A DNA stretch of 64,000 bases, taken from NCBI GenBank assembly GCA_965197525.1, contig OZ240211.1, forward strand, positions 480,001 through 544,000, read 5' to 3'. The notes beneath the pieces were generated by a model. That model did no database searches, had not been told where the DNA came from, and saw only the letters and a list, made by a program, of their open reading frames with translations. Every line of letters starts with the position of its first letter. The stretch's first letter is position 1. Shown in pieces: positions 2,851 through 58,205 of the stretch. This DNA comes from Nitrosopumilus sp. (GTDB lineage Archaea; Thermoproteota; Nitrososphaeria; Nitrososphaerales; Nitrosopumilaceae). Both the position numbers and the translations under genes were made by a program.

Positions 2851-5800
2851 TCAATTCGTGGTGCGGACGGTGTAAGTATGATCAGCATCAGTAGGTGCAG
2901 TGTTTGTAAGAGGATTATTTGCTGCGTCTACAATACCGTGCCCTGACGATATCAGATCAAGGTTGTATGTGCCGTCTTGAGTTGCAGAGACTGTCACGTA
3001 ATACGTATTGCCAGAACCTGAGATCGATGTTACAGGGTTTGACGTATCGCTGCTGCTGCTGCTGCTACCAGGATTGATCGTAAGCGTCCAGCTGTTCAGG
3101 GTACCGTCATCGGCAGCTGCAAAGTTGTCGTTTATCTGTAGCGTCCAGGTACCTGCAATGGAGACACCTGCAAAGTTTGGTGTGTATGTCTGGTCTATGT
3201 CATTGGCGCTGCCTCCAGAGCGGTTGTGGAGGGTCCTAGTTGCACCATCAGGTGCAACAAGATCTATCTTGAGGTCGCCTATGTACGTGTGGGAGACGTC
3301 TATTGCAACTGAGACTGACGTAACAGTACCAGAGTCTGGGACTGTGATGGTATCTGTTATGGTGTTGGCGGCAGTTATGGCAATGGCAGGAGAACGTGTC
3401 TGTGTGAACTGACCGGAATCTGCGCCAGAACCGGTTCCGCCCGTGCTGTCAGAAGACAGGGTAAAGTCAGTCTTGTTCACTCCGGTTACATCCTCACTAA
3501 AGGTCACCTCGTAGACTAGTGTCTGGCTGTCAGTAGGTGCAGCAGCAGGATTGGATCTCTCAATTGATGTGAGTGTTGGTGCTGTGGTATCAGCAGGTAC
3601 TGTGTTGACCGTGTAGGTGTGGTCTGCTCCGGTGGTGGCAGTATCAGTTAGAGGATTGTCTGCCAAATCCTTGATGCCGTGGTTTTGTACAAGATCAAGG
3701 TTGTATGTGCCGTCCTGTGTGACAGAGACTGCCACGTAATACGTATTGCCAGAACCTGAGACCGATGTTACAGGGGTTGATGTACCACTACTACTACCAG
3801 GATTGATCGTAAGCGTCCAGCTGTTCAGGGTACCGTCATCTTCAGCTGCAAAGTTGTCGTTTATCTGTAGCGTCCAGATACCTGCAATTGGAATACCTGC
3901 AAAGTCTGGTGTGTATGTCTGGTCTATGTCATCGGCGCTGCCTCCAGAGCGGTTGTGGACGGTCTTGATTGTTCCATCAGGTGCAATAAGATCGACCTTG
4001 AGGTCGCCTTTGTACGTGTGAGAGACGTCCACGGCGACAGAGACTGACGTAACAGTACCAGAGCCGGTAACTGTGATGGTATCTGTTATGGTGTTAGCTG
4101 CAGTTATGGCAATGGCAGGAGAACGTGTCTGTGTGAACTGGGCAGAGCTTGATCCGCCCGTGCTATCAGAAGACAGGGCAAAGTCAGTCTTGTCCACTCC
4201 GGTTACATCCTCGCTAAAGGTCACCTTGTAGGTCAGCGTCTGGCTGTCGGTGCTTTCTGCAACGGGACTGTACCGCTCAATTGATGATAGTGTTGGCGCA
4301 GTGGTGTCATCAGGTACGGTATTGACGGTATACGTCTCGTCAGTACCTGTAGTTGGAGTCACGTCTGTTAGTGGATTGCTTGATTTATCAGTTATATCGT
4401 GCCCTGACGATATCAGATCAAGGTTGTATGTGCCGTCCTGTGTGGCCAAAACCGTCACTTGGTACGTGTCGCCAGAACCTGAGATCGATGTTACAGGGTT
4501 TGATGTATCACTGCTGCTACTACCAAGATTGATCGTAAGCGTCCAGCTGTTTAGGGTACCGTCGTCTGCGGTGGCATAGTTGTCGTTTATCCTTAAAGTC
4601 CAGATACCTGCAATTGGAATACCTGCAAAGTCTGGTGTGTATGTCTGGTCTATGTCATCGGCGCTGCCTCCAGAGCGGTTGTGGACGGTCTTGATTGTTC
4701 CATCAGGTGCAATAAGATCGACCTTGAGGTCGCCTTTGTACGTGTGAGAGACATCCACGGCGACAGAGACTGACGTAACAGTACCAGAGCCGGTAACTGT
4801 GATGGTATCTGTTATGGTGTTGGCTGCAGTTATGGCAATGGCAGGAGAACGTGTCTGTGTGAACTGGGCAGAGCTTGATCCGCCCGTGCTATCAGAAGAC
4901 AGGGCAAAGTCAGTCTTGTCCACTCCGGTTACATCCTCGCTAAAGGTCACCTTGTAGGTCAGCGTCTGGCTGTCGGTGCTTTCTGCAACGGGACTGTACC
5001 GCTCAATTGATGATAGTGTTGGCGCAGTGGTGTCATCAGGTACGGTATTGACGGTATACGTCTCGTCAGTACCTGTAGTTGGAGTCACGTCTGTTAGTGG
5101 ATTGCTTGATTTATCAGTTATATCGTGCCCTGACGATATCAGATCAAGGTTGTATGTGCCGTCCTGTGTGGCCAAAACCGTCACTTGGTACGTGTCGCCA
5201 GAACCTGAGATCGATGTTACAGGGTTTGATGTATCACTGCTGCTACTACCAAGATTGATCGTAAGCGTCCAGCTGTTCAGGGTACCGTCGTCTGCGGTGG
5301 CATAGTTGTCGTTTATCCTTAAAGTCCAGATACCTGCAATTGGAATACCTGCAAAGTCTGGTGTGTATGTCTGGTCTATGTCATCGGCGCTGCCTCCAGA
5401 GCGGTTGTGGACGGTCTTGATTGTTCCATCAGGTGCAATAAGATCGACCTTGAGGTCGCCTTTGTACGTGTGAGAGACATCCACGGCGACAGAGACTGAC
5501 GTAACAGTACCAGAGCCGGTAACTGTGATGGTATCTGTTATGGTGTTGGCTGCAGTTATGGCAATGGCAGGAGAACGTGTCTGTGTGAACTGGGCAGAGC
5601 TTGATCCGCCCGTGCTATCAGAAGACAGGGCAAAGTCAGTCTTGTCCACTCCGGTTACATCCTCGCTAAAGGTCACCTCGTAGACTAGTGTCTGGCTGTC
5701 AGTAGTTGCAGCAACAGGATTGTATCTCTCAATTGATGTGAGTGTTGGTGCAGTGGTGTCATCAGGTACGGTATTGACGGTATACGTCTCGTCAGTACCT

Positions 5801-8800
5801 GTAGTTGGAGTCACGTCTGTTAGTGGATTGCTTGATTTATCAGTTATATCGTGCCCTGACGATATCAGATCAAGGTTGTATGTGCCGTCCTGTGTGGCCA
5901 AAACCGTCACTTGGTACGTGTCGCCAGAACCTGAGATCGATGTTACAGGGTTTGATGTATCACTGCTGCTGCTACCAGGATTGATCGTAAGCGTCCAGCT
6001 GTTCAGGGTACCGTCGTCTGCGGTGGCATAGTTGTCGTTTATCCTTAAAGTCCAGATACCTGCAATTGGAATACCTGCAAAGTCTGGTGTGTATGTCTGG
6101 TCTATGTCATCGGCGCTGCCCCCAGAGCGGTTGTGGACGGTCTTGATTGTTCCATCAGGTGCAATAAGATCAACCTTGAGGTCGCCTTTGTACGTGTGAG
6201 AGACATCCACGGCGACAGAGACTGACGTAACAGTACCAGAGCCGGTAACTGTGATGGTATCTGTTATGGTGTTGGCTGCAGTTATGGCAATGGCAGGAGA
6301 ACGTGTCTGTGTGAACTGGGCAGAGCTTGATCCGCCCGTGCTATCAGAAGACAGGGCAAAGTCAGTCTTGTCCACTCCGGTTACATCCTCGCTAAAGGTC
6401 ACCTCGTAGACTAGTGTCTGGCTGTCAGTAGTTGCAGCAACAGGATTGTATCTCTCAATTGATGTGAGTGTTGGTGCAGTGGTGTCATCAGGTACGGTAT
6501 TGACGGTATACGTCTCGTCAGTACCTGTAGTTGGAGTCACGTCTGTTAGTGGATTGCTTGATTTATCAGTTATATCGTGCCCTGACGATATCAGATCAAG
6601 GTTGTATGTGCCGTCCTGTGTGGCCAAAACCGTCACTTGGTACGTGTCGCCAGAACCTGAGATCGATGTTACAGGGTTTGATGTATCACTGCTGCTGCTA
6701 CCAGGATTGATCGTAAGCGTCCAGCTGTTCAGGGTACCGTCGTCTGCGGTGGCATAGTTGTCGTTTATCCTTAAAGTCCAGATACCTGCAATTGGAATAC
6801 CTGCAAAGTCTGGTGTGTATGTCTGGTCTATGTCATCGGCGCTGCCTCCAGAGCGGTTGTGGACGGTCTTGATTGTTCCATCAGGTGCAATAAGATCAAC
6901 CTTGAGGTCGCCTTTGTACGTGTGAGAGACGTCCACGGCGACAGAGACTGACGTAACAGTACCAGAGCCGGTAACTGTGATGGTATCTGTTATGGTGTTG
7001 GCTGCAGTTATGGCAATGGCAGGAGAACGTGTCTGTGTGAACTGGGCAGAGCTTGATCCGCCCGTGCTATCAGAAGACAGGGCAAAGTCAGTCTTGTCCA
7101 CTCCGGTTACATCCTCGCTAAAGGTCACCTCGTAGACTAGTGTCTGGCTGTCAGTAGTTGCAGCAACAGGATTGTATCTCTCAATTGATGTGAGTGTTGG
7201 TGCTGTGGTATCAGCAGGTACTGTGTTGACCGTGTAGGTGTGGTCTACTCCGGTGGTGGCAGTATCAGTTAGAGGATTGTCTGCCGAATCCTCGATGCCG
7301 TGGTTTTGTACAAGATCAAGGTTGTATGTGCCGTCACTTGATGCAGAGACTGTCACAAAGTACTGGCTGCCAGAACCGGATATGGAGGTTACAGGATTGG
7401 GGACATCGGGGGTATCACCATAATTAATTGTGAGTGTCCAGCTGTTCAGAACGCCGTCATCTGCAGATGGATAGTCGTCGTTGATCTGTAGCGTCCATGT
7501 TCCTGATATTGAGGCGCCGTTAAAGTTCGGTGTGTATGTAGCTATGATATCGTCTGAACTACCGCCTGAACGATTGTGTAACGTTTTGGTTGTACCGTCG
7601 GGGGCAACCAAATCTACCTTTAGATCACTAATGTATGTATGAGTAATGTTTAGGTCAACTGAAACTGATGCAGCATTTCCAGAATTAGACACTGATATGG
7701 TATCAACAACGTCTTGATCACCTGCTATGGCAGTTGATGGTGAGTTGGTCTGAGTGAACTGGCCAGTACCAGTACCTGGGTCGGGACCGCCCGTGCTATC
7801 AGAAGACAGAACAAAGTCAGACTGTGTCACGCCGGTCACTGCTTCGCTAAAGGTTACCTCGTAGACTAGTGTCTGGCTGTCAGTAGTTGCAGCAACAGGA
7901 TTGTATCTCTCAATTGATGTGAGTGTTGGTGCTGTGGTATCAGCAGGTACTGTGTTGACCGTGTAGGTGTGGTCTACTCCGGTGGTGGCAGTATCAGTTA
8001 GAGGATTGTCTGCCGAATCCTCGATGCCGTGGTTTTGTACAAGATCAAGGTTGTATGTGCCGTCACTTGATGCAGAGACTGTCACAAAGTACTGGCTGCC
8101 AGAACCGGATATGGAGGTTACAGGATTGGGGACATCGGGGGTATCACCATAATTAATTGTGAGTGTCCAGCTGTTCAGAACGCCGTCATCTGCAGATGGA
8201 TAGTCGTCGTTGATCTGTAGCGTCCATGTTCCTGATATTGAGGCGCCGTTAAAGTTCGGTGTGTATGTAGCTATGATATCGTCTGAACTACCGCCTGAAC
8301 GATTGTGTAACGTTTTGGTTGTACCGTCGGGGGCAACCAAATCTACCTTTAGATCACTAATGTATGTATGAGTAATGTTTAGGTCAACTGAAACTGATGC
8401 AGCATTTCCAGAATTAGACACTGATATGGTATCAACAACGTCTTGATCACCTGCTATGGCAGTTGATGGTGAGTTGGTCTGAGTGAACTGGCCAGTACCA
8501 GTACCTGGGTCGGGACCGCCCGTGCTATCAGAAGACAGAACAAAGTCAGACTGTGTCACGCCGGTCACTGCTTCGCTAAAGGTTACCTCGTAGACTAGTG
8601 TCTGGCTGTCAGTAGTTGCAGCAACAGGATTGTATCTCTCAATTGATGTGAGTGTTGGTGCTGTGGTATCAGCAGGTACTGTGTTGACCGTGTAGGTGTG
8701 GTCTACTCCGGTGGTGGCAGTATCAGTTAGAGGATTGTCTGCCGAATCCTCGATGCCGTGGTTTTGTACAAGATCAAGGTTGTATGTGCCGTCACTTGAT

Positions 8801-11800
8801 GCAGAGACTGTCACAAAGTACTGGCTGCCAGAACCGGATATGGAGGTTACAGGATTGGGGACATCGGGGGTATCACCATAATTAATTGTGAGTGTCCAGC
8901 TGTTCAGAACGCCGTCATCTGCAGATGGATAGTCGTCGTTGATCTGTAGCGTCCATGTTCCTGATATTGAGGCGCCGTTAAAGTTCGGTGTGTATGTAGC
9001 TATGATATCGTCTGAACTACCGCCTGAACGATTGTGTAACGTTTTGGTTGTACCGTCGGGGGCAACCAAATCTACCTTTAGATCACTAATGTATGTATGA
9101 GTAATGTTTAGGTCAACTGAAACTGATGCAGCATTTCCAGAATTAGACACTGATATGGTATCAACAACGTCTTGATCACCTGCTATGGCAGTTGATGGTG
9201 AGTTGGTCTGAGTGAACTGGCCAGTACCAGTACCTGGGTCGGGACCGCCCGTGCTATCAGAAGACAGAACAAAGTCAGACTGTGTCACACCGGTCACTGC
9301 TTCGCTAAAGGTTACCTCGTAGACTAGTGTCTGGCTGTCAGTAGTTGCAGCAACAGGATTGTATCTCTCAATTGATGTGAGTGTTGGTGCTGTGGTATCA
9401 GCAGGTACTGTGTTGACCGTGTAGGTGTGGTCTACTCCGGTGGTGGCAGTATCAGTTAGAGGATTGTCTGCCGAATCCTCGATGCCGTGGTTTTGTACAA
9501 GATCAAGGTTGTATGTGCCGTCACTTGATGCAGAGACTGTTACAAAGTACTGGCTGCCAGAACCGGATATGGAAGTTATAGCATTAGCGGCAGTACCCGT
9601 ACTAGCGGAAGACAGAACAAAGTCAGACTGTGTCACGCCGGTTACATCTTCGCTAAAGGTTACCTCGTAGACTAGTGTCTGGGCGTCAGTAGTTGCGGCA
9701 GCAGGATTGTATCTCTCAATTGATGTGAGTGTTGGTGCAGTGGTATCAGCAGGTACCGTGTTGACCGTGTAGGTGTGGTCTACTCCGGTGGTGGCAGTAT
9801 CAGTTAGAGGGTTATCTGCCAAATCCTCGATGCCGTGGTTTTGTACAAGATCAAGGTTGTATGTGCCGTCCTGTGTGGCCAAAACCGTCACTTGGTACGT
9901 GTCGCCAGAACCTGAGATCGATGTTACAGGGTTTGATGTACCACTACTACTACTACTGCCACTATCAGGATTGATCGTAAGCGTCCAGCTGTTCAGGGTA
10001 CCGTCGTCGGCGGTGGCATAGTTGTCGTTTATCTGTAGCGTCCAGATACCTGCAATTGAAACACCGGCAAAGTCGGGTGTGTATGTCTGGTCTATGTCAT
10101 CGGCGCTGCCTCCAGAGCGGTTGTGGACGGTCTTGATGGTTCCATCAGGTGCAATAAGATCTATCTTGAGGTCGCCTTTGTACGTGTGAGAGACGTCCAC
10201 GGCGACAGAGACTGACGTAACAGTACCGGAATCGGTAACTGTGATGGTATCTGTTATGGTGTTGGCTGCAGTTATGGCAATGGCAGGAGAACGTGTCTGT
10301 GTGAACTGGGCAGAGCTTGATCCGCCCGTGCTATCAGAAGACAGGGCAAAGTCAGTCTTGTCCACTCCGGTTACATCCTCGCTGAAGATCACCTTGTAGG
10401 TCAGCGTCTGGCTGTCGGTGTTTTCTGTAGCTGGATTGTACCGCTCAATTGATGATAGTGTTGGTGCAGTGGTGTCAGCAGGTACCGTGTTGACAGTATA
10501 TGTCTGGTCTACTCCGGTGGTGGCAGTATCAGTTAGAGGGTTATCTGCCAAATCCTCGATGCCGTGGTTTTGTACAAGATCAAGGTTGTATGTGCCGTCA
10601 CTTGACGCAGAGACCGTTACAAAGTACTGGCTGCCAGAACCGGATATGGAGGTTACAGAATTAGCGGCAGTACCCGTGCTATCAGAAGACAGAACAAAGT
10701 CAGACTGTGTCACACCGGTTACATCCTCGCTAAAGGTTACCTTGTAGATTAGCGTCTGGTTGTCGGTGTTCTGGTCTGTGGGACTGTATCTTTCAATTGA
10801 CGTGACCGTCGGGGCAATCGTGTCAACAGTGTAGGTGTGGTCGGTTCCAGTTGTTGGGGCGGTGTCAACCAGAGGGTTGCTTGATTCGTCTGTGATGCCG
10901 TGCCCCGATGACACCAGATCAAGGTTGTAGGTGCCGTCCTGCGTCGCAGAGACTGTCACGTTGTATATATAGCCGGAGCCTGTCAGACCTGTTATGCTGC
11001 CTGCCCCTGTACTTCCAGGGGACAGGGCAAAGTCGGCTGAATGCACGCCAGTCACATTCTCGCTGAAAGTCACTCGGTAGATTAGCGTCTGACTAGAAGT
11101 TGTTGTACCTGACGGGCTGAACCGCTCTATCGACGAGATCGTGGGGGCGGTGGTGTCTGCAGGAATGGTGCTGACCGTGTAGGTGTGGTCGACCCCGGTG
11201 GAGGTGGTGTCAACCAGAGGGTTGCTTGATTCGTCTGTGATGCCGTGCCCCGATGACACCAGATCAAGGTTGTAGGTGCCGTCCTGCGTCGCAGAGACTG
11301 TCACGTTGTATATATAGCCGGAGCCTGTCAGACCTGTTATGCTGCCTGCCCCGGTACTTCCAGGGGACAGGGCAAAGTCGGCTGAATGCACGCCAGTCAC
11401 ATTCTCGCTGAAAGTCACTCGGTAGATTAGCGTCTGACTAGAAGTTGTTGTACCTGACGGGCTGAACCGCTCTATCGACGAGATCGTGGGGGCGGTGGTG
11501 TCTGCAGGAATGGTGCTGACCGTGTAGGTGTGGTCGACCCCGGTGGAGGTGGTGTCAACCAGAGGGTTGCTTGATTCGTCTGTGATGCCGTGCCCCGATG
11601 ACACCAGATCAAGGTTGTAGGTGCCGTCCTGCGTCGCAGAGACTGTCACGTTGTATATATAGCCGGAGCCTGTCAGACCTGTTATGCTGCCTGCCCCGGT
11701 ACTTCCAGGGGACAGGGCAAAGTCGGCTGAATGCACGCCAGTCACATTCTCGCTGAAAGTCACTCGGTAGATTAGCGTCTGACTAGAAGTTGTTGTACCT

Positions 11801-14800
11801 GACGGGCTGAACCGCTCTATCGACGAGATCGTGGGGGCGGTGGTGTCTGCAGGAATGGTGCTGACCGTGTAGGTGTGGTCGACCCCGGTGGAGGTGGTGT
11901 CAACCAGAGGGTTGCTTGATTCGCTGTGATGCCGTGCCCCGATGACACCAGATCAAGGTTGTAGGTGCCGTCCTGCGTCGCAGAGACTGTCACGTTGTAT
12001 ATATAGCCGGAGCCTGTCAGACCTGTTATGCTGCCTGCCCCGGTACTTCCAGGGGACAGGGCAAAGTCGGCTGAATGCACGCCAGTCACATTCTCGCTGA
12101 AAGTCACTCGGTAGATTAGCGTCTGACTAGAAGTTGTTGTACCTGACGGGCTGAACCGCTCTATCGACGAGATCGTGGGGGCGGTGGTGTCTGCAGGAAT
12201 GGTGCTGACCGTGTAGGTGTGGTCGACCCCGGTGGAGGTGGTGTCAACCAGAGGGTTGCTTGATTCGTCTGTGATGCCGTGCCCCGATGACACCAGATCA
12301 AGGTTGTAGGTGCCGTCCTGCGTCGCAGAGACTGTCACGTTGTATATATAGCCGGAGCCTGTCAGACCTGTTATGCTGCCTGCCCCGGTACTTCCAGGGG
12401 ACAGGGCAAAGTCGGCTGAATGCACGCCAGTCACATTCTCGCTGAAAGTCACTCGGTAGATTAGCGTCTGGCTGTCGGTGTTTTCTGATGTCGGATCGTG
12501 TCGTTCTATTGACGTGACTGTCGGGGAGGTGGTGTCAATACCTGTCACAGTCACGTTGTAGATGCGGTAATTGGAGGTACCAAAGTCTCCAGTAGAGGTT
12601 ATGTTGACCGTGTAACCGGGCTTGTCTGGTGATACTATCATGTTCAGGACGGAGCTGTCTGTGATATTAAACGAGTCAAAATCTTCTCCGTCTCCTATGT
12701 TGTATTTGGGGTTCTGCCTACCAAGCACCAAATTCTGCGCCGACATGTGCCCTACTACGCCGGGTGTGTTGTCGACATGTATCGTGGTGTTGTTCAGCAC
12801 AATGTACCAGTTGCCCAGATTTTGCCTGAATGCTGAGGCGCCATTGAACATGGAGCCCATGGATTTCACCGAGGAGACGTCCCAATCGGAAAGGTCGGAG
12901 TTGAAGGAGGAGGCGCCTTCGAACATTCTATACATGTTCTTCACATTGGAGACGTCCCAAGAGGAGATGTTGCCGTTGAAAGAGGAGGCGAGCATGAACA
13001 TGCCGCCCATGGATTTCACCGAGGAGACGTCCCAATCGGAAAGGTCGGAGTTGAAGGAGGAGGCTCCTAAAAACATATTAGACATTGCTCCTACGTTGGA
13101 GACGTCCCAAGAGGAGATGTTGCCGTTGAAAGAGGAGGCTTTAAACATGGCGCCCATGTGCCTCGCCGAGGAGACGTTCCAGGAGGAGATGTTGCCGTTG
13201 AAAGAGGAGGCGCCGTCGAACATTGCAGCCATGTTGACTACGTTTGAGACGTCCCAATCGGAAAGGTCGGAGTTGAAGGAGGAGGCATCATGGAACATGG
13301 CAATCATGGTGTCCACATTGGAGACGTCCCAGGAGGAGAGGTCGGAGTTGAAGGAGGAGGCGCCGCTGAACATGTCGATCATGGTGTCCACATTGGAGAC
13401 GTCCCAGGAGGAGAGGTCGGAGTTGAAGGAGGAGGCATCATGGAACATGTCACTCATGTTATCCACATTGGAGACGTCCCAGGAGGAGATGTTGCCGTTG
13501 AAAGAGGAGGCACCGCGGAACATGTCACTCATGTTATCCACATTGGAGACGTCCCAGGAGGAGATGTTGCCGTTGAAAGAGGAGGCACCGCGGAACATGT
13601 CACTCATGTTATCCACATTGGAGACGTCCCAGGAGGAGAGGTCGGAGTTGAAGGAGGAGGCACCGCGGAACATGTCACTCATGTTATCCACATTGGAGAC
13701 ATCCCAGGAGGAGAGGTCGGAGTTGAAGGAGGAGGCATCATGGAACATCCGATCCATGTTGGTTACATACGATACGTCCCAGTCGGAGAGGTCTGCATCA
13801 AAGGAGGAGGCGCCGCGGAACATTTGGTGCATGCGGCCCACATTGGAGACGTTCCAGGAGGAGAGGTCGGAGTTGAAGGAGGAGGCATCATGGAACATGA
13901 CATTCATGCCATACACATTGGAGACGTCCCAGGAGGAGAGGTCGGAGTTGAAGGAGGAGGCATCTAAGAACATGCCACCCATGAATCTCACAGAGGAGAC
14001 GTCCCAGGAGGAGAGGTCGCCATCAAAGGAGGAGGCACCATGGAACATACCATTCATGTATTCCACGCTGGAGACGTCCCAGGAGGAGAGGTCGGAGTTG
14101 AAGGAGGAGGCATCCTTGAATATTCCGTGCATGTTAGTCACAGACGAGACGTTCCAGTCAGAGAGGTCGGAGTTGAAGGAGGAGGCACCATGGAACATCC
14201 AGAGCATGTTATCCACATGGGAGACATTCCAGTCAGAGAGGTCGGAGTTGAAGGAGGAGGCACCATAAAACATGCGGTCGATGGTGTCCACATTGGAGAC
14301 GTTCCAGGAGGAGAGGTCGGAGTTGAAGGAGGAGGCGGCGAAGAACATCATGCTCATGTCGGTTACGCTGGAGACATCCCAGGAGGAGAGGTCGGAGTTG
14401 AAGGGAGTGACGGCTAACATATGGGACATGTTAGTCACGCTGGAGACATCCCAGGAGGAGAGGTCGGAGTTGAAGGAGGAGGCGTACATGAACATGTACG
14501 ACATGTCGGTGACAGATGCAAGGTCTGGCGTGTCGCTTGCATTGGAGACCATGTTCGCCGCGTTGCTAAACGCTCTAGACATTGACTCCCACTTTATATC
14601 CCCCCACTGCTCTATTGACTGTAGCTTCTCCGCGTTGTTCCTGTCTTGATACAGATTGATTCGCGTAAAGTTGCCAGATATCGAAACGGTGTAGGTTCCG
14701 GCATCGTCATAGATGTGCATCTGGTCACCGGTGACGTTGGCAGACACGGTTCCATCGCCCCAGTCGACCGTGTAGGCACCCGAGGCGCCGCCTCCAACCG

Positions 14801-17800
14801 GGATAGTTATGACCTCGTTTGCACTAGTAGTCTGCCATGTGGTGACAAAGGGCGCGTTACCTGTGTCCAGTATTGTGACCTCCACGGTATCGTCAGAAGA
14901 CGTGACACCGTCGTGCACAGTCAGGGTCAAGGTGACAGTCGTGTCAGAATGGACGCCGGGTGCCTCAAACCAAGTGGAAGGCGACGACGGGTCGTCAAGC
15001 GTTATGGCCACGGAACCGTCATGCGACCACTCGTACGTCAGCGAGTCCCCTTGGTCGGCATCTGATGCCGTGCCGGAGAGGCTAACAATCAAGCCCTCTG
15101 TTATGTCTTGGTTTACGCCGGCATCAACTATCGGGGGGTTGTTTATGACGACCTCGACCGTTCTGGAGTTGTTTGCGCCAAAGCCGCCAGTCGAGGTGAT
15201 GTTTACTGCATATGTGCGGCTTTCTGGCAGGCCACTGCCTGCATTTAGCACCAGTGTGGAGCCGTCTGTCTCAAAATAGCCCGAGTCTCCGCCGATTCCC
15301 ATGCCGTATGACGGGTTCTGGCCGTCGAGGTACGCGTTCTGCGCAGCAATACTGCCCACCGCTATGGTCGCATTACCTGCTCTGGCCGGCGTGTCATCTA
15401 GCACTATGTACCACGTCCCCAGATTCTGTGCAAACGAGTCGGCACCGTCGAACATGCCTGACATGTCAGTCACAGACGAGACGTTCCAGTCAGATAGGTC
15501 GGAGTTGAAGGAGGAGGCGCCTGAGAACATGCCTGACATGTCAGTCACAGACGAGACGTTCCAGTCAGATAGGTCGGAGTTGAAGGAGGAGGCGCCTGAG
15601 AACATGCCTGACATGTCAGTCACAGACGAGACGTTCCAGTCAGATAGGTCGGAGTTGAAGGAGGAGGCGCCTGAGAACATCGAGATCATGTAGGTAACGC
15701 CGGAAAGATCAGGCGAATCCGTTGCACTGTATGTCATGTTTGAGGCACCATTGAACGCAGACTCCATGGACTGCCACCGGGTGTCCCCCCACTGCACTAT
15801 TGAGTGCAATTTGGCCGCGTTGTTTGCATCGTCGCCCAGATTGATTCTCGTAAAGTCGCCGGATATCGAAACAGCGTGGGTTCCGGCACTGTCATAGGCG
15901 TGCGTCTGGTCACCGGCGACGTTGGCAGACACGGTTCCGTCGCCCCATTCCACCGAGTATGTGTCTGCCGCCCCGCCAGCAGGTATGATTATGGACTCGT
16001 TCTGCGCGATGGTGTTCCACACCATGACAAAAGTGTCATCACGGGAGGAAAACGGCAGTGTGCTGGCCAGGGCGTAGTTTTGTTCGGAGCGTCGAGGCGT
16101 GTCGATGTCTGTTCCCGTCACCGCTACCGTGCACGTGCCTGCCTCTGCAGGCACAAATACCGCAAACTCGTTGGACTGGTATGCCGACTGTGCAGATATC
16201 GTGTTCATTCCCGGGCAGTCGACGGTAAAGCCTAGGTCGGCAAAGTAATAGTCCCCGCCGGAGGAGCGGTAGCCATCATAGAACGGGTCGGCAGTCCACG
16301 ACAGTATCACCTTTACCGGGTTTTCGGTGTCGTGCACCTCAAACTGGTAGGCGTCCGCGTCAGAATTAGAGTGCAGGCTACCCTCTACAAGATGTCTGCC
16401 AGAGGCGCCGGTAACGTAATCAAGCGTCCTGCCCGCGTCAAGTATTCCAAAACCTACGTTATTTATTATTCCAAGTGAGTCAGCGTTGTTTGCCGTGTTC
16501 CAGTCTGTCGGTTGTCTTGCGTGGGAGCAGTTGTCTGTGGGGTGGTTCTCTTCATACTGCACCGATGTGCACGGCACAGGTCCCGTCCAGTTGGCCCCGA
16601 GAAGTACTGCCGCCTTGACGGTAGCCGGTTCCATGTCCCTTTCCTGCAGTGCCAGGGCAACGACTGCTGTTACTGCAGGGGCTGAAAAACTTGTCCCAGA
16701 GTTGGGTGCAGTGGTGCTGTTTGCCACAAACGAGGGTATATCTAACTTGTATGCAGGGGCCACCACCTCGGGCTTGAGTATCGGGTGGATGGTGCCACCT
16801 ACATTGTGGCTGGCAGGCCCCCTGCTTGATAGTATGTACATGCCGACATCATCCGGGTTGCGGTCGTCTATCCCGCCAACCGTGATGACGTTGTGTGCGC
16901 ATGCCAGCTCGCTGACGGACTTGTAGACAGGTACCACGGCATGACCGTTATGGATGGCGCCGTCGTTTCCGGCAGATATGACAACAGGCATTCCCAAATC
17001 CACTGCCTCTCCTGTGAGCAGTTGGGGTGTGGTGTCAAAGTTAACCTCGTGGCACCTTCCAGCACTGTAGCTCAGGTTTGACACATCCGCACCCATCTCA
17101 AGGAGCCATTCAAATGCATGCGAGCCGCTAGCAACGTTCGGAGAAGTACCACCACCGTGCCGCTTGATTCCGGCATCCAGAATGTCAACCCCGGGGGCGA
17201 TCCCGTTGTTGTCTGCAAGTCCGGATCCGGCAATGACCATTGCCACGCGCGTTCCATGCGAAGTCTGCAGGTTCCCTATGTCAGGTGCAGTTACGCCACT
17301 AGCCTGCGCGGGACTGCACCTGTGATCGGTGCACAGGACGCGGCCGATTACGCTGTCGTTTATCCAGTTAGGATGGTTTATGCCAGAATCCACCACGCCT
17401 ACTGTCACGCCAGAGCCTTCCACTGTTGTCCCGTCCGGCCTGCGCAAGTCGTCTGGAGTAGCCCCTATGGTCAGGCGCATCTCGTCTATGGTTGGGGTCA
17501 TCTGCGCCTGACCGTCGCCCATGCGGTACACCTGGCCGTGCCCGGATACCTCTAGGATGCGGTTTACCGGAACCGACGCGGTGACAAAGGAGAGAAGATC
17601 GGCGGCCTTGATGTCCCTAGCTCCAATATCCTTCAGTATCTTGACTACCGCGTCTTTGTTTGTCTCTGAGAAGTCGGTGCCGTCACGATCGTACTTGTTG
17701 ACGGTTATTATCACGTCATGGTGTGTCGTCGGGCTTTGCAGGTTTTCGTCTTGCGTCTGCTTCGTCAGTTTTTGCGCCTTACGTTCCGACTGAGGGGCAA

Positions 17801-18047
17801 AGGTGCTTTCAAGAAGGTTTTCGTCTTGCACCTGCTCCATCAGTTTTTGCACCAGAGCGTAAAAACCGGGGTCGAGTTTGTCAGGATCCCCAATACCATC
17901 CTGCGCGAAACCGGCAGACTTGTAGATACCCGGAACAGTACTGACTTTTGTCTGCTCTGTCTGGCTATGTGTCTCAAGAGGCGCCAGCGAAACGACTAGG
18001 ACAATGAAAACCAGCATGGCCACGGCGACGTGCGTGTTTTTGTCCAT
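2851..18047 (-). CDS. Giant secreted S8 subtilase with DUF285/BspA repeats, PKD/Ig-like repeats and 10 P-proprotein domains (one-base frameshift near 11923)
   Basis: ORFs 11817..18047 and 2851..11763 join if one T is restored between 11923 and 11924 (spacing of identical repeats 345,345,344,345), giving 5,065 aa. Signal peptide present. Catalytic motifs VVDSG, SHGT, AGND, GTSFSAP. Confidence 0.85.
3000..10450 (-). repeat. Array of Ig-like + P-domain modules (726-bp type A, 729-bp type B)
   Basis: Seven type A P-domains (QFTQTRSPAIAITAAN) and three type B (QFTQTNSPSTAIAGDQ). Periods are visible from shadow ORFs 4250/4976 and 7238/7967/8696/9425. Confidence 0.9.
10870..12470 (-). repeat. Five near-identical 345-bp (115-aa) Ig-like repeats
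   Basis: Marker GGGACAGGGCAAAGTCGGCTGA at about 11018, 11363, 11708, 12052 and 12397. Confidence 0.92.
12810..14530 (-). repeat. DUF285/BspA-type 25-aa repeat block (23 units, 75-bp period)
   Basis: Repeats of consensus ASSFNSDLSSWDVSNVxxMxxMFxx counted in the translation. Confidence 0.9.
15430..15720 (-). repeat. Short DUF285 block (three identical 75-bp units plus partials)
   Basis: ASSFNSDLSDWNVSSVTDMSGMF occurs three times. Confidence 0.85.
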
Positions 18048-23824: not shown

Positions 23825-23850
23825 GGTTCTGTCAGGTTATCGAGATCTAA
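23825..23850 (+). mobile_element. Orphan TIR end of the tnpB element family (E2)
   Basis: GGTTCTGTCAGGTTATCGAGATCTAA vs E4 left end GGTTCTGTTGGGTTATCGAGATCTAA (24/26). No partner end found. Confidence 0.7.
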
Positions 23851-23869
23851 TGTATTAACTCAAAAATTG

Positions 23870-24010
23870 GTAACCGTGTAGTTTTTTGAAATCCATGACT
23901 ACAATAAGGAAATTTGCGCTCAAACTTACATCTCTCATAAAACAAATAGTAATGATTGGTTGATATATTGTGTGTAGATCCTAGTTTACTTCAAAAAACT
24001 ATATAGTTAC
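23870..24010. mobile_element. 141-bp MITE-like segment with 21-bp imperfect IRs
   Basis: GTAACCGTGTAGTTTTTTGAA (23870-23890) vs reverse complement of 23990-24010, GTAACTATATAGTTTTTTGAA (18/21). Confidence 0.5.
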
Positions 24011-31843: not shown

Positions 31844-32830
31844 CTATGGCACTTTGATCTTCTCTAAGATTTTTTGTATAATGTCGTCAGGTGTGATCCG
31901 TTCTGCTTCGGCTTCATATGTTAGAATGATTCGATGACGAAGGACATCGTAGGCTATATTTTGTACATCTTGCGGAGTTACGTATCCTCTTCCTTGCAGT
32001 AAAGCGTTAGATTTAGCTGAGATGGTAATCCATATGGACGCTCGAGGTGATGCACCATATTCAATATAATTAGATATGTCAAGGTCATATTTGGCAGGGA
32101 ATCGTGTTGCATCTACGATCTCTGTAATGTAATTGTAAATAGTATCATCAACGTAAATCTCTCCTACAAAATCTTGTATTGAGATCATCTCATCAGTTGA
32201 TAAAATTTTTGCAGGGTGAGGGGTCATACCAGTTGTGAATCGTTGGATAATCTCGGATTCCTGCTCCCTGTTTGGATATGAGATTAATAATTTGAACATG
32301 AAACGATCTAATTGTGCTTCAGGAAGTCGGTACGTTCCTTCAGACTCTATCGGGTTTTGGGTGGCCATTACAAAGAACGGTTTTTCTAGGATGTGTGTCT
32401 CTCCTTGGATACTTACTTGGTTCTCCTGCATTGCCTCAAGCAATGCTGATTGTACCTTTGGAGGGGCACGATTAATCTCGTCAGCTAGTATAAAGTTTGA
32501 AAATATTGGGCCTTGTAGCGTGTTAAATGACGCTGTGGTATGATCATAAATTTTGGTTCCGGTAATGTCTGCAGGTAGCAGATCAGGAGTGAATTGTAGT
32601 CGTACAAACTCGGCACTTGTGCAATCAGATAATGTCTGAACAAGTAACGTCTTGGCCAGTCCTGGAACGCCTTCAAGCAGAACGTGACCATTAGATAGCA
32701 AGGCAATGATTAATTTTTCAATTACTTTGTCTTGGCCTACAATAACCTTTGAGATCTCATCGTGAAGTTCTTTGATTTTGACAGACAATTCCCGAGATTT
32801 GGTAGTTAATGCTTGAATTTCTTGACTCAT
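31844..32830 (-). CDS. moxR: MoxR family AAA+ ATPase
   Basis: GVPGLAKT, QFTPDLLPAD, ADEINRAPPKVQSALLEAM motifs. Confidence 0.95.
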   Translation of the reverse strand: MSQEIQALTTKSRELSVKIKELHDEISKVIVGQDKVIEKLIIALLSNGHVLLEGVPGLAKTLLVQTLSDCTSAEFVRLQFTPDLLPADITGTKIYDHTTASFNTLQGPIFSNFILADEINRAPPKVQSALLEAMQENQVSIQGETHILEKPFFVMATQNPIESEGTYRLPEAQLDRFMFKLLISYPNREQESEIIQRFTTGMTPHPAKILSTDEMISIQDFVGEIYVDDTIYNYITEIVDATRFPAKYDLDISNYIEYGASPRASIWITISAKSNALLQGRGYVTPQDVQNIAYDVLRHRIILTYEAEAERITPDDIIQKILEKIKVP

Positions 32831-32899
32831 ATCTCTTGACCACGTAATATTGAATATAATAAAATTGGGAAAGGTTATCTTATATAAATTGCGTTTTTT

Positions 32900-33158
32900 G
32901 GTTCTGTAACATCTTCGAGACCCTTAGTGATGTTATCGCTGGCCTAAATATACCATTCAAACTATCCTCTAGGTTTAGGGATAGTCGAGATGACATAGAT
33001 GAAGCGAAGTCTGGCATTTTTGAGCCAGCGATGTTGGAATCTTGCAGATCAGTAATCTAGATAGTCGATATGTCAAAGTCGAGTGATAGAGAGAAAACAA
33101 TTTGTTAATAATACAACAAAATTTCTTTGTTGATAGGTGTCTATAACCAGACAGAACC
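32900..33158 (+). mobile_element. MITE-like deletion derivative of the tnpB element (E3, 259 bp)
   Basis: Ends GGTTCTGT...ACAGAACC. The interior is homologous to the tnpB 3' end from the RuvC-III codons (GATGTTATCGCT) through GATATGTCAAAGTC. Confidence 0.85.
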
Positions 33159-33269
33159 GTCATCCCAGTTTTGAAGACTATTTTGCGTTAGTTGATCCAC
33201 ATCGTTTTCTGCTTTATCTAGCGTTTTGTTATCATCAGGTAGTCGCTGTGATTCTGTAAATAAGAGATG

Positions 33270-34268
33270 CTATTCTTTGGAATCAGGCCACATCATTTTA
33301 CGCATGGCTTTACCAACTTTTTCAATCTGATGTGCATCATAATCTTGCATATATTTGTCAAAGGAGGCCTTGCCATTCTTTTGATACTCAGATATCCATT
33401 CTTTGTTAAATGTGCCGTCCTGAATCATATCAAGGACTTTTTTCATCTTTTCTTTATTTGCAGAGTCCATAACCATTGGTCCTCTAGTGAGTCCGCCATA
33501 TCTTGCAGTCTCACTTACACGTCTCCACATTCCGTTGATGCCATACTTTTGAATTAGATCTACAATGAGTTTCAGCTCGTGTAACACCTCAAAATATGCA
33601 ATCTCAGGTTGATAACCTGCCTCAACAAGTGTTTCAAACGCATTTGTAACCATGGATGCAGCACCACCACACAGATCAGCTTGTTCTCCAAACCAGTCAG
33701 TCTCTACCTCTTCTTTGAAACTAGTCTTGATCAATCCGGCCCTTGCACTACCTATACCTTTTGCAATGCCTAACGTTCTATCCCAAGCCTTTCCTGTAAA
33801 ATCTTGTTCTACTGCAACAATTGACGGAGTCCCAAAATTATCAAGATATGTCTCTCTTACTTTGGAACCCGGTCCCTTTGGTGCAACCATGATTATATCA
33901 ACATCAGATGGCGCCTCTATCCATTTCCAATAGATTGCAGCAGCATGTGAGAATGACAGTGATTTACCAGTTGAAAGATTTGGCTGTATCTCATCTTTGT
34001 ATACCTGACCTTGAATCATGTCAGGGATTAGTATATGAATAATGTCTGCCTGTTTTGTCGCATCTGCAACTGTTAATACTTTATGGCCATCGGATTCTGC
34101 CTTTCTCCAAGTGTTGCTACCTTTTTTGAGTCCAACTATCACGTTAAGACCGGAATCGCGCATGTTGTTGGCTTGTGCATCGCCTTGAATACCGTAGCCA
34201 ATCACAGCAATGACCTCGTCTTTGATAGAGTCAAGACTGATGTCATTATCTTTCCATACTTGTGCCAT
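33270..34268 (-). CDS. ilvC: Ketol-acid reductoisomerase
   Basis: IGYGIQG and ETDWFGEQADLCG motifs. Confidence 0.97.
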   Translation of the reverse strand: MAQVWKDNDISLDSIKDEVIAVIGYGIQGDAQANNMRDSGLNVIVGLKKGSNTWRKAESDGHKVLTVADATKQADIIHILIPDMIQGQVYKDEIQPNLSTGKSLSFSHAAAIYWKWIEAPSDVDIIMVAPKGPGSKVRETYLDNFGTPSIVAVEQDFTGKAWDRTLGIAKGIGSARAGLIKTSFKEEVETDWFGEQADLCGGAASMVTNAFETLVEAGYQPEIAYFEVLHELKLIVDLIQKYGINGMWRRVSETARYGGLTRGPMVMDSANKEKMKKVLDMIQDGTFNKEWISEYQKNGKASFDKYMQDYDAHQIEKVGKAMRKMMWPDSKE

Positions 34269-36418: not shown

Positions 36419-36798
36419 GGGTTCTGTTGGGTTATCGAGATCTAAAACATAGAAATAAATACTTTTAATCATTACCATAATCATTGAACAGCACGAACAC
36501 GCAATATCCAGGATGCGGAAAGAAACTCCAAGAGGATATTATGCAACAACATCATAAATTATCGTGTACTAATTGTGGATTGTTCATTGATATGAACGCA
36601 TCTCACAAGCTGTCCCCTAGGTTTAGGGATAGTAGAGATGACATACATGAAGCGCAGTCTGGCACTTTTGAGTCAGCAATGTCGGAACCCAGCACACCGT
36701 CGGTAATCCGAATAGTCGATATGTCAAAGTCAGGTTATATGGAGAGGAACTTTGTTAATACACAACAAATTTCAGGTCTCGATAACCCAACAGAACCC
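36419..36798 (+). mobile_element. MITE-like deletion derivative of the tnpB element (E4, 380 bp)
   Basis: Perfect 22-bp TIRs GGGTTCTGTTGGGTTATCGAGA (36419-36440 and 36777-36798). The interior is the decayed tnpB zinc finger and 3' end. Confidence 0.92.
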
Positions 36799-48307: not shown

Positions 48308-48414
48308 ACGTATTCTTCAGAGAACCCCGATAATATCTGCTACGCTAGCAAGTAATACGGTTTTATTTGAAAAGGTTTTGTGAAGTTATCGGGAGTTATA
48401 TGTCATCCCTAAAA

Positions 48415-48422
48415 TGTATAAA
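48415..48422 (+). promoter_or_regulatory. Putative TATA box of tnpB
   Basis: TGTATAAA 22 nt before the TTG start, conserved in E1 (625-632, minus strand). Confidence 0.45.
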
Positions 48423-48444
48423 CCTCTGAACCGTAAGATATTCG

Positions 48445-49638
48445 TTGAGAGCGATAAAGTCAATATCACAGAAATATGCGCAAAACTCTGATCTAATGGA
48501 TATGATGGCTATATTCACAAAGATGGTCAATCATTGCATCAAGATAGGGTTGAAAGAAGACACTCACAATATGAAGAGGTTGTCCATGTTATGTTATCAT
48601 GAATTACGTAACTATGGCATTTTATCAACATACAAGATATGTGCAATATCAAGAGCTGCAGGCATATTATCAAACAGAAAACAATCAATCAAACGAGGTG
48701 TCAGAATAAGAGACCCAATAGTCAAAAATCCCTTTATGACAAACTGTTACGGCATAAAACACAACGGTGCACTACTAACAATCCCATACAAGAAACATAA
48801 CCCAATCAGCATTTTACTCAACGATCACACCCAAAAAATCCTATCTGATCCCGCCTTGACGGTGCGCTCGTTTTCATTGACTGCTCTCAACATCAGTCTT
48901 TGTGTTTCAAAAACAGTACAAGAGATAGAGTGCACCAAGAAGGTGGGAATAGACAGAAACCTAAGAAATGTGACGTGTGGGGACGAGGAAGAGGTGACAG
49001 TCTACAAGACAAACAAACTGTTATCCATAAAGGAGAACACAATACACGCCAGGGCAGGCTTCCACAGAAATGATCGCAGGAAGAAAAATCAGTTCTACAA
49101 GGAAAAACAGAGAAGACTGACTAACAGAGCAAAGCAGTACATCCACAGAATCTCAAAGGATATAGTAGACAACGCAGTCAAAAACAAGACTGCAATCGTC
49201 ATGGAAAACCTGAAAGGAATAAGAAAATTGTACCGAAAAGGAAACACTCAAGGTAACAAGTACAGACGTAGATTGAACGGGTGGCAATTCTACGAGTTAC
49301 AACGCCAAATAGAATACAAAGCCCAATGGGTCGGACTACCTCCAGTCGAGACAGTAGACCCAAGAAACACGAGCACGCAGTGTCCACAATGCGGAAAGAG
49401 ACTCCAAGAGGACATGCAACAACATCGTAAATTGTCGTGTAATAATTGCGGTTTGTTTATGGACAGGGACATCATCGCTGCCATGAACATATCACGCAAA
49501 CTGCCCCCTAGGTTTAGGGGTAGTAGAGGTGACATAGATGAAGCACAGTCCGGCACTTTTGAGCAGGCGATGACGGAACCCAGCACACCATTGGTAATCC
49601 GAATAGTCGATATGTCAAAGTCGAGTTATAGGGGTTAA
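48445..49638 (+). CDS. tnpB: TnpB-family RNA-guided nuclease, catalytically intact
   Basis: RuvC D (GIDRN), E (MENL) and D (DRDIIAAMNI). Zinc finger CPQCG...CNNCG. Confidence 0.93.
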   Translation: MRAIKSISQKYAQNSDLMDMMAIFTKMVNHCIKIGLKEDTHNMKRLSMLCYHELRNYGILSTYKICAISRAAGILSNRKQSIKRGVRIRDPIVKNPFMTNCYGIKHNGALLTIPYKKHNPISILLNDHTQKILSDPALTVRSFSLTALNISLCVSKTVQEIECTKKVGIDRNLRNVTCGDEEEVTVYKTNKLLSIKENTIHARAGFHRNDRRKKNQFYKEKQRRLTNRAKQYIHRISKDIVDNAVKNKTAIVMENLKGIRKLYRKGNTQGNKYRRRLNGWQFYELQRQIEYKAQWVGLPPVETVDPRNTSTQCPQCGKRLQEDMQQHRKLSCNNCGLFMDRDIIAAMNISRKLPPRFRGSRGDIDEAQSGTFEQAMTEPSTPLVIRIVDMSKSSYRG

Positions 49639-49660
49639 CTCCCGATAACTTCACAGAACC
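49505..49660 (+). ncRNA. Predicted omegaRNA region overlapping the tnpB 3' end
   Basis: A ~118-nt block (CCCTA-GGTT-TAGGG hairpin to GATATGTCAAAGTC) is conserved in E3, E4, E5 and E6. TnpB omegaRNAs are known to overlap the gene 3' end. Expression not shown. Confidence 0.5.
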
Positions 49661-56778: not shown

Positions 56779-58129
56779 GGTTCTGTCTAATCATAGTGAG
56801 ATAAAATCTAAACTCCGAAAAAAAGTTTTGTTGTAATATTAACAAAGTGTCTTTTTCCCATCAGTTGACTTTGACATATCGACTATTTGGATTACCGGTG
56901 TACAGGGTTCCAACATCGCTAACTCAAAAACATTAGACTTCGCTTCACTTATGCCAACTCTACTATCCCTAAACCTAGGGGACAGTTTGTGAGGTATATT
57001 TATAGCAGCAATAACGTCTCTGTCCATAAACAACCCACAATTATTGCACGACTTTTTACGATGGTGTTGCAAGTCCTCTTGGAGTTTCTTTCCGCATCTT
57101 GGACATTGCGAGCTCGTGTTTTTTGGGTCTACAAATTTTACTGGAAGCCCTACCCATTGGGCTTTGTATTGTATTTGTCTTTGAAATTCAAAGAATTGCC
57201 ATCCGTTTAATCTACGTCTGTACTTGTTACCTTGACCATTGCCTTTCTTGTATAATTTTCTTATTCCTTTTAGATCTTCTAGAATAATCATGGTTTTGTT
57301 TTTGACTGCTCGTTCTACAATATCTTTTGAGATTCTATGTATGTATTGTTTGGTTCTTTGAGACATTCTTCTCTGCTTTATCTTCCAGAACTGATCTTTC
57401 TTTCTACGGTCATTTCTATGAAATCCAGCTCTAGCGTGTATTGTATTTTCTTTAATTGATAGTAATTTATTTGTCTTGTATACTATAACTTTTTTCTCAT
57501 TCCCACAAGTGACATTTCTAAGATTTCTGTCTAATTCCTACCGGTACATTAGTACATTCTATTTCTTCAACTTTTTTTGAAACACAAAAACTGATACTTT
57601 TTTCATTCATAATAAATGATCTTATATTTAAATCAGGATTAGATAGTATTTTTTGAGTGTGATCATTTAATAATATGTTTATGGGGTTTCTATTTTTGTA
57701 TGGTATTGTCATTAAACTACCATTATGTTTGATACCATAACAATTTGTAATAAATAACTTTTTTACAACTAGGTCTCTTACTGTAACACCACGCTTTATT
57801 GACTGTTTTCTGTTAGATAGTATGCCAACAGCACGTGATATTGCATTTATTTTATATGAACCTAAAACATCATAGTCTCTAAATTCATGATAACAAAGTG
57901 GAGACAACTGTTTCAAACTATGTACGTCTTCTCTTAACCCTATTCTAATGGAACGATTTACCATTTTTATGAATATCTCCATCAACTCTTTTAGATCAGA
58001 ATTTGGTGTATGTTTCTGTGTTATTGATTTTAATGCCTTCATACTACTAGAACATGTTTTATTTTTTTAATAAAGGTACTTTTTTTGAAATTATTTTTAT
58101 TCTTTGCCACTTGATAATCCAATAAAACC
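56779..58129 (-). mobile_element. Diverged TIR-bounded tnpB element E6 (1,351 bp)
   Basis: Right end GGTTCTGTCTAATC at 56779. Left end GGTTTTATTGGATTATCAAG at 58129 (16/20 to the E4 TIR). Confidence 0.8.
56839..58042 (-). pseudogene. tnpB: Frameshifted tnpB
   Basis: ORFs 57518..58042 and 56839..57366 join if one extra T (GGAATTAGAC vs GGAATAGAC) is removed just before the RuvC-I Asp codon. Confidence 0.88.
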
Positions 58130-58205
58130 ATTATTTGTTATTGTAAATCTAGATAAAAATTTATCTCCCTATAAATAGACAGAACACTGTATAGGTAAGT
58201 ATTAA

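Follow-up and report, generated by a model that had tools for sequence, protein, structure and literature searches.

Activity in trans has been reported for stand-alone omegaRNAs (Altae-Tran et al. 2021, as summarized in PMC10691335). PATEs, described from Haloquadratum as elements derived by deletion (PMC3119063), "often encode omegaRNAs", for which TnpB has to be supplied in trans (Meers et al., PMC10055086). TnpB is also reported to process its own mRNA into omegaRNA (PMC10278001), and section 9 of PMC10691335 describes DDE-associated TnpBs with inverted repeats, as well as solo TnpBs with matching ends. The only DDE partner named in that section is IS630 (DDE-6 branch), and the account given there names no IS6/IS240-type partner, no TAM-like motif abutting a target duplication and no omega-only MITEs.

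The idea of an element that carries only a guide RNA is thus already published, in the form of stand-alone omegaRNAs and PATEs, and it is with these that we compare a 259-bp element of Nitrosopumilus sp., which lies at positions 32900–33158 of a 64,000-nucleotide stretch of its genome (the window). Like the stand-alone omegaRNAs, this element has a guide-RNA scaffold without an effector or transposase gene and resides in a genome with compatible effectors. Stand-alone omegaRNAs were described for IS200/IS605, whereas the 259-bp copy belongs to a family with IS6-type terminal inverted repeats (TIRs) and 8-bp target duplications, is itself known from sequence alone and shows no sign of movement. 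With the IS200/IS605 PATEs it shares the lack of any protein, derivation from tnpB by loss of the core, retention of the ends and (in PATEs often) of the omegaRNA, and dependence on TnpB and transposase in trans. PATEs, however, have subterminal palindromes, no TIRs, no target duplication and a Y1 TnpA, and the Nitrosopumilus family has TIRs and duplications and no Y1. As with the DDE-associated TnpBs, tnpB lies within 250 bp of an inverted-repeat end and solo elements share the ends of transposase-bearing elements, which points to mobilization in trans. What is new from the 259-bp copy is a minimal whole-scaffold unit and a hybrid structure.

We lean, with modest confidence, toward reading the 259-bp copy as a nuclease-less deletion derivative with IS6-type ends, whose omegaRNA is loaded in trans by a TnpB of the same family.

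A tnpB family with IS6-type ends

Transposons of the IS6 family have short TIRs beginning GG and make 8-bp target duplications. The elements described here resemble them and their MITEs in both respects, as well as in the DDE_Tnp_IS240 transposase and in the loss of duplications through rearrangement; classical IS6 elements carry a transposase only, whereas here most elements with such ends carry tnpB and omegaRNA, or omegaRNA alone.

The host genome (one contig, 2.21 Mb, 39.6% G+C, 99%-complete) has 52 nhmmer matches to the conserved 3′ block of the family, 51 of them besides the 259-bp copy. It contains about 37 long tnpB-only elements, and the frame is open, which we define as at least 390 codons, in 33. 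Full-length copies have TIRs of 22–26 bp that match within an element and differ between subfamilies, and the 8-bp target duplication matches at 7 or 8 of 8 positions in 27 of 45 copies. Searches for Y1 (PF01797) and serine TnpA, both positive in control genomes, found neither in this genome. Seven DDE_Tnp_IS240 genes score above the Pfam cut-off. An IS240-type element at genome 746475–748444 has TIRs that match at 26 of 26 positions and an 8/8 duplication, and other DDE_Tnp_IS240 elements lie at genome 699962–703151, 583727–588872 and 1956395–1960520. Ends of the GGTTCTGT type are common to four transposase-bearing elements, with 8/8 duplications in two, and the transposase-bearing elements do not have the omegaRNA block. 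Because of the TIRs, the 8-bp duplications, the ends shared with DDE_Tnp_IS240 elements and the lack of a TnpA, we take tnpB and its RNA to be the cargo of non-autonomous IS6-like elements. The family is IS6-like, and the same features overturn the IS200/IS605-like type that had been assumed when the locus was first read from its letters (the sequence-only reading).

IS1595 was considered as the transposase partner and rejected. The genome has two IS1595-family DDE transposase genes, at genome 338527–338940 (E 6e-35) and 615649–616077 (E 1e-33), and neither has a clean GGTTCTGT inverted-repeat pair; the first adjoins a GATTCTGT-type end, for which no matching second end was found. With these two genes also present, the IS240-type transposases are the putative partners of the individual TIR subtypes.

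In the window the family is represented by three further copies. An intact 1287-bp tnpB element (48374–49660, plus strand) encodes, at 48445–49638, a TnpB of 397 aa with D-E-D catalytic motifs, the translation being the sole basis for RuvC-I. This protein has a Cas12f1-like TNB domain (Pfam, E 7e-21) and a weak, sub-threshold OrfB_IS605 match, and the catalytic residues are kept in the TnpBs of the family. The second copy is a frameshifted 1408-bp tnpB element (56779–58186, minus strand), and the third is a sister 378-bp omega-only element (36420–36797, plus strand) with a twin at genome 870887–871264. A second Nitrosopumilus genome, OZ245003.1, has 13 exact copies of the conserved core with the same TIRs and 8-bp duplications. 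A DNA search of 60 other species of the genus gave block matches in two, both weak; the plasmid collection gave no match, and the 20-nt core had no match in the metagenome collection.

Several other structures were seen alongside the family. The element at genome 699962–703151 (3.2 kb, IS6-like, 26/26 TIRs) has a passenger DNA methylase (N6_N4_Mtase, E 1e-42), beside whose gene lies that of a 383-aa transposase with a SWIM zinc finger, and the 5.1-kb element at genome 583727–588872 (perfect 26-bp TIRs) has an rve-type integrase (386 aa), an IS240-type transposase and several unassigned ORFs. Three elements of ~58 bp, at genome 1581561–1581618, 1606862–1606919 and 1607236–1607293, consist of little beyond two GGTTCTGT-type inverted ends, and one of them has a 7/8 target duplication. 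The left part of the element at genome 1780161–1781610 includes, at its positions 56–146, an unrelated ~90-nt repeat that is also found near genome 750539, 1101674, 1458295, 1835421 and 1904269. Two 1291-bp tnpB elements of OZ245003.1 (L061 and L064) have swapped 8-bp flanks, TAGAAACT and TTATGTTA, which is the footprint of inversion by recombination between the two copies. In the window itself, an orphan right-end fragment (GGTTCTGTCAGGTTATCGAGATCTAATG... on the minus strand) lies at 23825–23875 with no omega block beside it, and two adjacent giant ORFs of 2970 and 2076 aa occupy 2851–18047, also on the minus strand.

Structure and locus of the 259-bp element

The 259-bp copy begins with GGTTCTGT (32900–32907) and ends with ACAGAACC (33151–33158), the terminus that closes nearly every detected copy and is lacking in two 5′-truncated fragments. 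Read on the plus strand, it comprises a 25-nt left-end TIR (32900–32924), 33 nt of decayed RuvC-III coding sequence, a complete scaffold and the right-end TIR (33129–33158). Its tnpB part (32929–33090, plus strand) is a dead 3′ remnant that in a tblastn comparison with the 397-aa TnpB of the window matches residues 342–396 only, at 65% identity. The remnant begins at the RuvC-III motif (SDVIAGLNI, vs DRDIIAAMNI in intact copies), as had been read from the letters, and holds about the last 55 codons, or ~165 nt, somewhat longer than the ~150 nt given at that time. Translation shows a sole in-frame stop, TAG at 33058–33060; with residues 342–396 only and this stop, the copy has no effector gene. 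Translation and tblastn otherwise bear out what the sequence-only reading had placed here, namely the two ends, the tnpB 3′ remnant, the conserved block and the TTTGTT..AACAAA hairpin.

The two ends form a perfect inverted repeat over the terminal 8 nt, which are common to IS240-type elements. Beyond these 8 nt they match poorly (16 of 30 positions overall), and positions 9–17 of the two ends are those of different subfamilies. The 8-bp target duplication is absent, the flanks being CGTTTTTT on the left and GTCATCCC on the right, which match at 1 of 8 positions. The label MITE that had been given to the element suits its length and its 8-nt inverted termini, suits its ends less well beyond these, and does not suit its missing duplication.

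In sequence the 259-bp copy differs by 16–20% from every other copy, and its parts have separate affinities. The first 20 nt of the left end are the TIR of the subfamily at genome 1780161–1781610, whereas the right end and terminal hairpin are of the type common to the 378-, 487- and 497-bp copies and the frameshifted element at window 56779–58186. The copy is flanked by genes for a MoxR-like AAA ATPase and a ketol-acid reductoisomerase (KARI), the latter at 33270–34268 on the minus strand and so convergent with the element. None of the seven relatives with both genes has MoxR-like and KARI side by side, so that the ancestral insertion cannot be reconstructed; KARI's neighbor in four relatives maps ~397 kb away in the host genome. 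A search for a reciprocal recombination partner found no ends with swapped 8-bp flanks, and none at the other breakpoint near genome 116118, and a junction-specific 22-mer of the copy is absent from the genome and metagenome collections. The 259-bp copy is single and has no duplication; it is the 378- and 388-bp sister types that have signs of mobilization. We conclude that the copy is probably a hybrid, in which recombination or deletion joined parts of two members of the family; the simplest account of it is that these two rearranged with each other.

Such a history also suits a different account, which we consider possible though doubtful. The 259-bp piece would then be an inert relic, a decaying junction without RNA function, whose 3′ end was retained for mechanical reasons and not by selection. 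Gap repair that ran inward from the right end and was aborted, truncation at the 5′ side, or a recombination event involving two copies could each have left such a piece. The missing duplication, the mismatched TIRs and the lack of MoxR-like/KARI adjacency in the seven relatives are all in its favor, and further evidence on this account is given with the scaffold and the other short copies below.

The 259-bp copy lacks the part of the left end that has the tnpB promoter region. Since the upstream MoxR-like gene also points away, the only place for a promoter would be the 70-nt spacer between that gene and the element, where an A/T-rich TTATATAA at 32880–32887 is a candidate promoter box.

The omegaRNA-like scaffold and its retention

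Judged by covariation among the aligned copies, the block that has been kept is an omegaRNA-like scaffold. In a 31-copy alignment, 94.6% of the cells of its three helices are paired, vs about 33% (29–39%) when the partners are slid by 1–3 columns, and 11 pairs have changes on both sides. Stem A (32961–32968 with 32978–32985, plus strand, as are all features of the scaffold) is paired in 97.8% of cells, has compensatory changes at 2 pairs and keeps 8 of 8 pairs in the 259-bp copy; its loop, CTAGGTTTA, hardly varies among the copies, the 487-bp copy having one G-to-A change. Stem B (33011–33015 with 33024–33028) has compensatory changes in all five of its pairs, which are included among the 11, and in the 259-bp copy it is CTGGC/GCCAG with 5/5 paired. 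Stem C (33035–33041 with 33051–33059, including a two-base bulge) is paired in 99% of cells; it is closed by a CG pair in 18 copies and by a UA pair in 11, and 6 of its 7 pairs are kept in the 259-bp copy. Next comes the nearly invariant 20-nt core ATAGTCGATATGTCAAAGTC (33061–33080), in which 30 of 31 aligned copies agree fully and the 487-bp copy has one change. Per-copy folds and the listing of ends place a variable terminal hairpin at 33081–33148, with TTTGTT at 33101–33106 and AACAAA at 33115–33120, and the 3′ arm of this hairpin is the inner part of the right TIR.

Overlap with the 3′ end of tnpB, extension to the right end and covarying stems are all features of TnpB omegaRNAs that are seen here. 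Of the 20 pairs, 19 are still formed in the 259-bp copy, which also has the conserved core, in spite of a scaffold divergence of 16–20%; this is not what an inert relic would lead one to expect. A covariance model of the block, a check that the sequence-only reading had named, recovers exactly four copies in the window, with the 259-bp copy at 177.7 bits; because all four were training sequences, this result is one of consistency and not independent support. The fold of the 259-bp copy alone is unremarkable (z = −1.6), and the scaffold has no Rfam match, a scan of 32600–33500 giving sub-threshold snoRNA noise only.

Two further structures were considered. An upstream helix (alignment columns 1–36) was kept out of the scaffold because it is weakly supported and is absent in the 259- and 378-bp copies. 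The stem A loop (GGTTT) could pair with the right-end terminus (AGAACC), forming a candidate pseudoknot, on which covariation is uninformative because those positions scarcely vary among copies.

Substitution patterns bear on whether the RNA has been maintained. Private substitutions, by which we mean residues never seen in full-length copies, occur in the 259-bp copy at 7 of 33 positions of the coding-only stretch, which lies upstream of stem A, vs 6 of 121 positions of the scaffold (Fisher P = 0.007), so that the former has decayed about four times faster than the latter, again counter to an inert relic. A pooled test on four non-coding copies, with the 378-bp pair excluded, gives P = 0.003, the 487-bp copy having a trend opposite to the other copies in the pool. 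Of five private changes at paired positions of the 259-bp copy, four preserve pairing (P about 0.03), and these pair-preserving changes may be older than the deletion. The corresponding comparison in the sister copies shows a weak effect, their remaining upstream coding sequence being just slightly more divergent than their scaffold. We regard the evidence for purifying selection on the RNA as moderate.

The short copies as a group also retain this block. Ten TIR-bounded short copies, from eight independent deletions, have the whole of it (259, 358, 378 twice, 388 twice, 419, 487, 497 and 655/795 bp); on the left they keep 24 to ~100 nt, the longest having ~300 nt of unassigned sequence, and on the right 230 to ~395 nt. 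The 378- and 388-bp types are each found at two different sites, with an 8-bp duplication at one member of each pair. Since two short types each occur twice at different sites, omega-only forms do spread, a further point against an inert relic. At the protein level the C-terminal end is present in 14 of 14 partial tnpB copies, and a search with positions 30–700 of full elements found no copies with the 5′ part of tnpB only. Thus the partial copies include no 5′-only or random tnpB segments; random segments were the outcome that the sequence-only reading would have counted against itself. The 259-bp copy is the smallest retained unit with a whole scaffold seen, which puts the 5′ boundary of the functional RNA close to 32961. 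One heavily decayed element (genome 1394563–1396016, 1454 bp) has good TIRs, an 8/8 duplication and the whole omega block, and the TnpB match in its interior is limited to residues 355–394.

Retention is not absolute. In three shorter derivatives, one of 208 bp with a perfect duplication, one of 237 bp and a remnant, the 5′ half of the block is gone, which makes the block dispensable for the survival of an element, and such cuts into it are in line with an inert relic. TIR-only elements of 58–171 bp are also present in the genome. Because 5′-truncated copies without a left end exist in both genomes (at genome 78731, 207516 and 453707, and L066 and L069 in OZ245003.1), the 3′-end polarity could be partly mechanical; mobility cannot be selected in copies of this kind, and the polarity that they display is in favor of a relic.

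The polarity could in principle have a third cause, which we consider unlikely: the ~200 nt next to the right end might be a cis-acting site that the DDE transposase needs besides the TIR for movement. Every TIR-bounded tnpB derivative does have right-end-proximal sequence, and none has left-end-proximal sequence. However, elements that are TIR-bounded and duplicated (7–8/8) with no block or half of it are found at genome 883991–884841 (851 bp), 1581561–1581618 (58 bp) and 1385894–1386101 (208 bp); the transposase-bearing elements themselves do without the block, and its covariation is of the RNA type.

Predicted guide, TAM-like motif and possible role

A TAM-like motif, TTG at 32889–32891 (plus strand), lies immediately 5′ of the 8 bp where a left target duplication of the 259-bp copy would lie. 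In the family as a whole a (T/A)TR motif abuts the 5′ side of the left target duplication, where a TnpB TAM would lie, and it does so on the left side only. The left-flank logo has T at −11 in 35 of 45 copies, T at −10 in 41 of 45 and a purine at −9 in 42 of 45; the full TTR at −11 to −9 is present in 31 of 45, vs a background of 4.4%. TTR is also found in 6 of 9 scorable copies of OZ245003.1 and is absent beside the four IS6-type transposase elements.

By analogy with other TnpB systems, the guide would be the host DNA just past the right end, and for an RNA reading out of that end of the 259-bp copy the predicted guide is GTCATCCCAGTTTTGAAGAC (33159–33178, plus strand). With a guide so placed, the empty site would read TTR, 8 bp and right flank, that is, TAM plus target, whereas the occupied site has ...GAACC at the TAM position. 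No second site in the genome matches the predicted guide with an adjacent TTR; a 14-nt guide match at genome 369577 is isolated, has no adjacent TTR and was treated as chance.

The predicted guide and any read-out transcript would run antisense into the 3′ region of the convergent KARI gene, and this raises the thought of a host-adopted regulatory RNA, such as an antisense RNA or a TnpB-guided repressor acting on KARI. We judge such a role very improbable, given that the search of 60 other species of the genus did not find the 259-bp copy conserved (the two weak matches being to the block), that no second target site with TTR was found and that the TnpBs of the family keep their catalytic residues.

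The reading we favor is that of a nuclease-less derivative served in trans, and its steps would be as follows. DDE transposases with genes at other sites of the genome would move the family of tnpB/omegaRNA cassettes in trans, and a transcript crossing the 259-bp copy would be bound, and probably trimmed, by TnpB from the ~33 open-frame copies. Loading in trans is plausible because the scaffold core is common to all subfamilies, and since TnpB reportedly releases omegaRNA from its own mRNA, any RNA that spans the element might serve. With host DNA beyond the right end as its guide, the protein-less element would share in the action of TnpB on behalf of the family. The (T/A)TR motif suggests what this may be: TnpB would cut the unoccupied allele and repair would copy the element in, as homing or retention. 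Transcription, loading in trans, the location of the guide and homing are steps that we infer from the features above and from TnpB biology.

This agrees in part with the proposal of the sequence-only reading that the element supplies a guide in trans. It is nuclease-less, keeps its scaffold and shares the genome with 33 open-frame tnpB elements; the 259-bp form is, on the other side, single, without a duplication, mismatched in its TIRs and located at a break in synteny. The corollary that each insertion would add a guide is better replaced by that of a mini-element hitch-hiking on TnpB for its own benefit.

A wider proposal can be put forward tentatively, namely that TnpB and omegaRNA drive the spread of copy-in DDE (IS6-like) transposons as well as that of the peel-and-paste IS200/IS605 elements. 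The (T/A)TR beside the duplication would then be the footprint of RNA-guided cutting of empty alleles or of target choice with the help of TnpB. Omega-only MITEs like the 259-bp copy would be parasites of the TnpB drive, and the strict 3′-end polarity of all truncated copies would be a scar left by gap repair that proceeds from the right end into the element.

Because DDE-type ends leave no excision scar to repair, this family is a direct test of the role of TnpB outside IS200/IS605. Copies of the 259-bp type take part in genome rearrangement. Guide-only elements mean that an OMEGA RNA and its nuclease can be inherited and selected separately, and such separate inheritance bears on how CRISPR-like guide arrays could have arisen.
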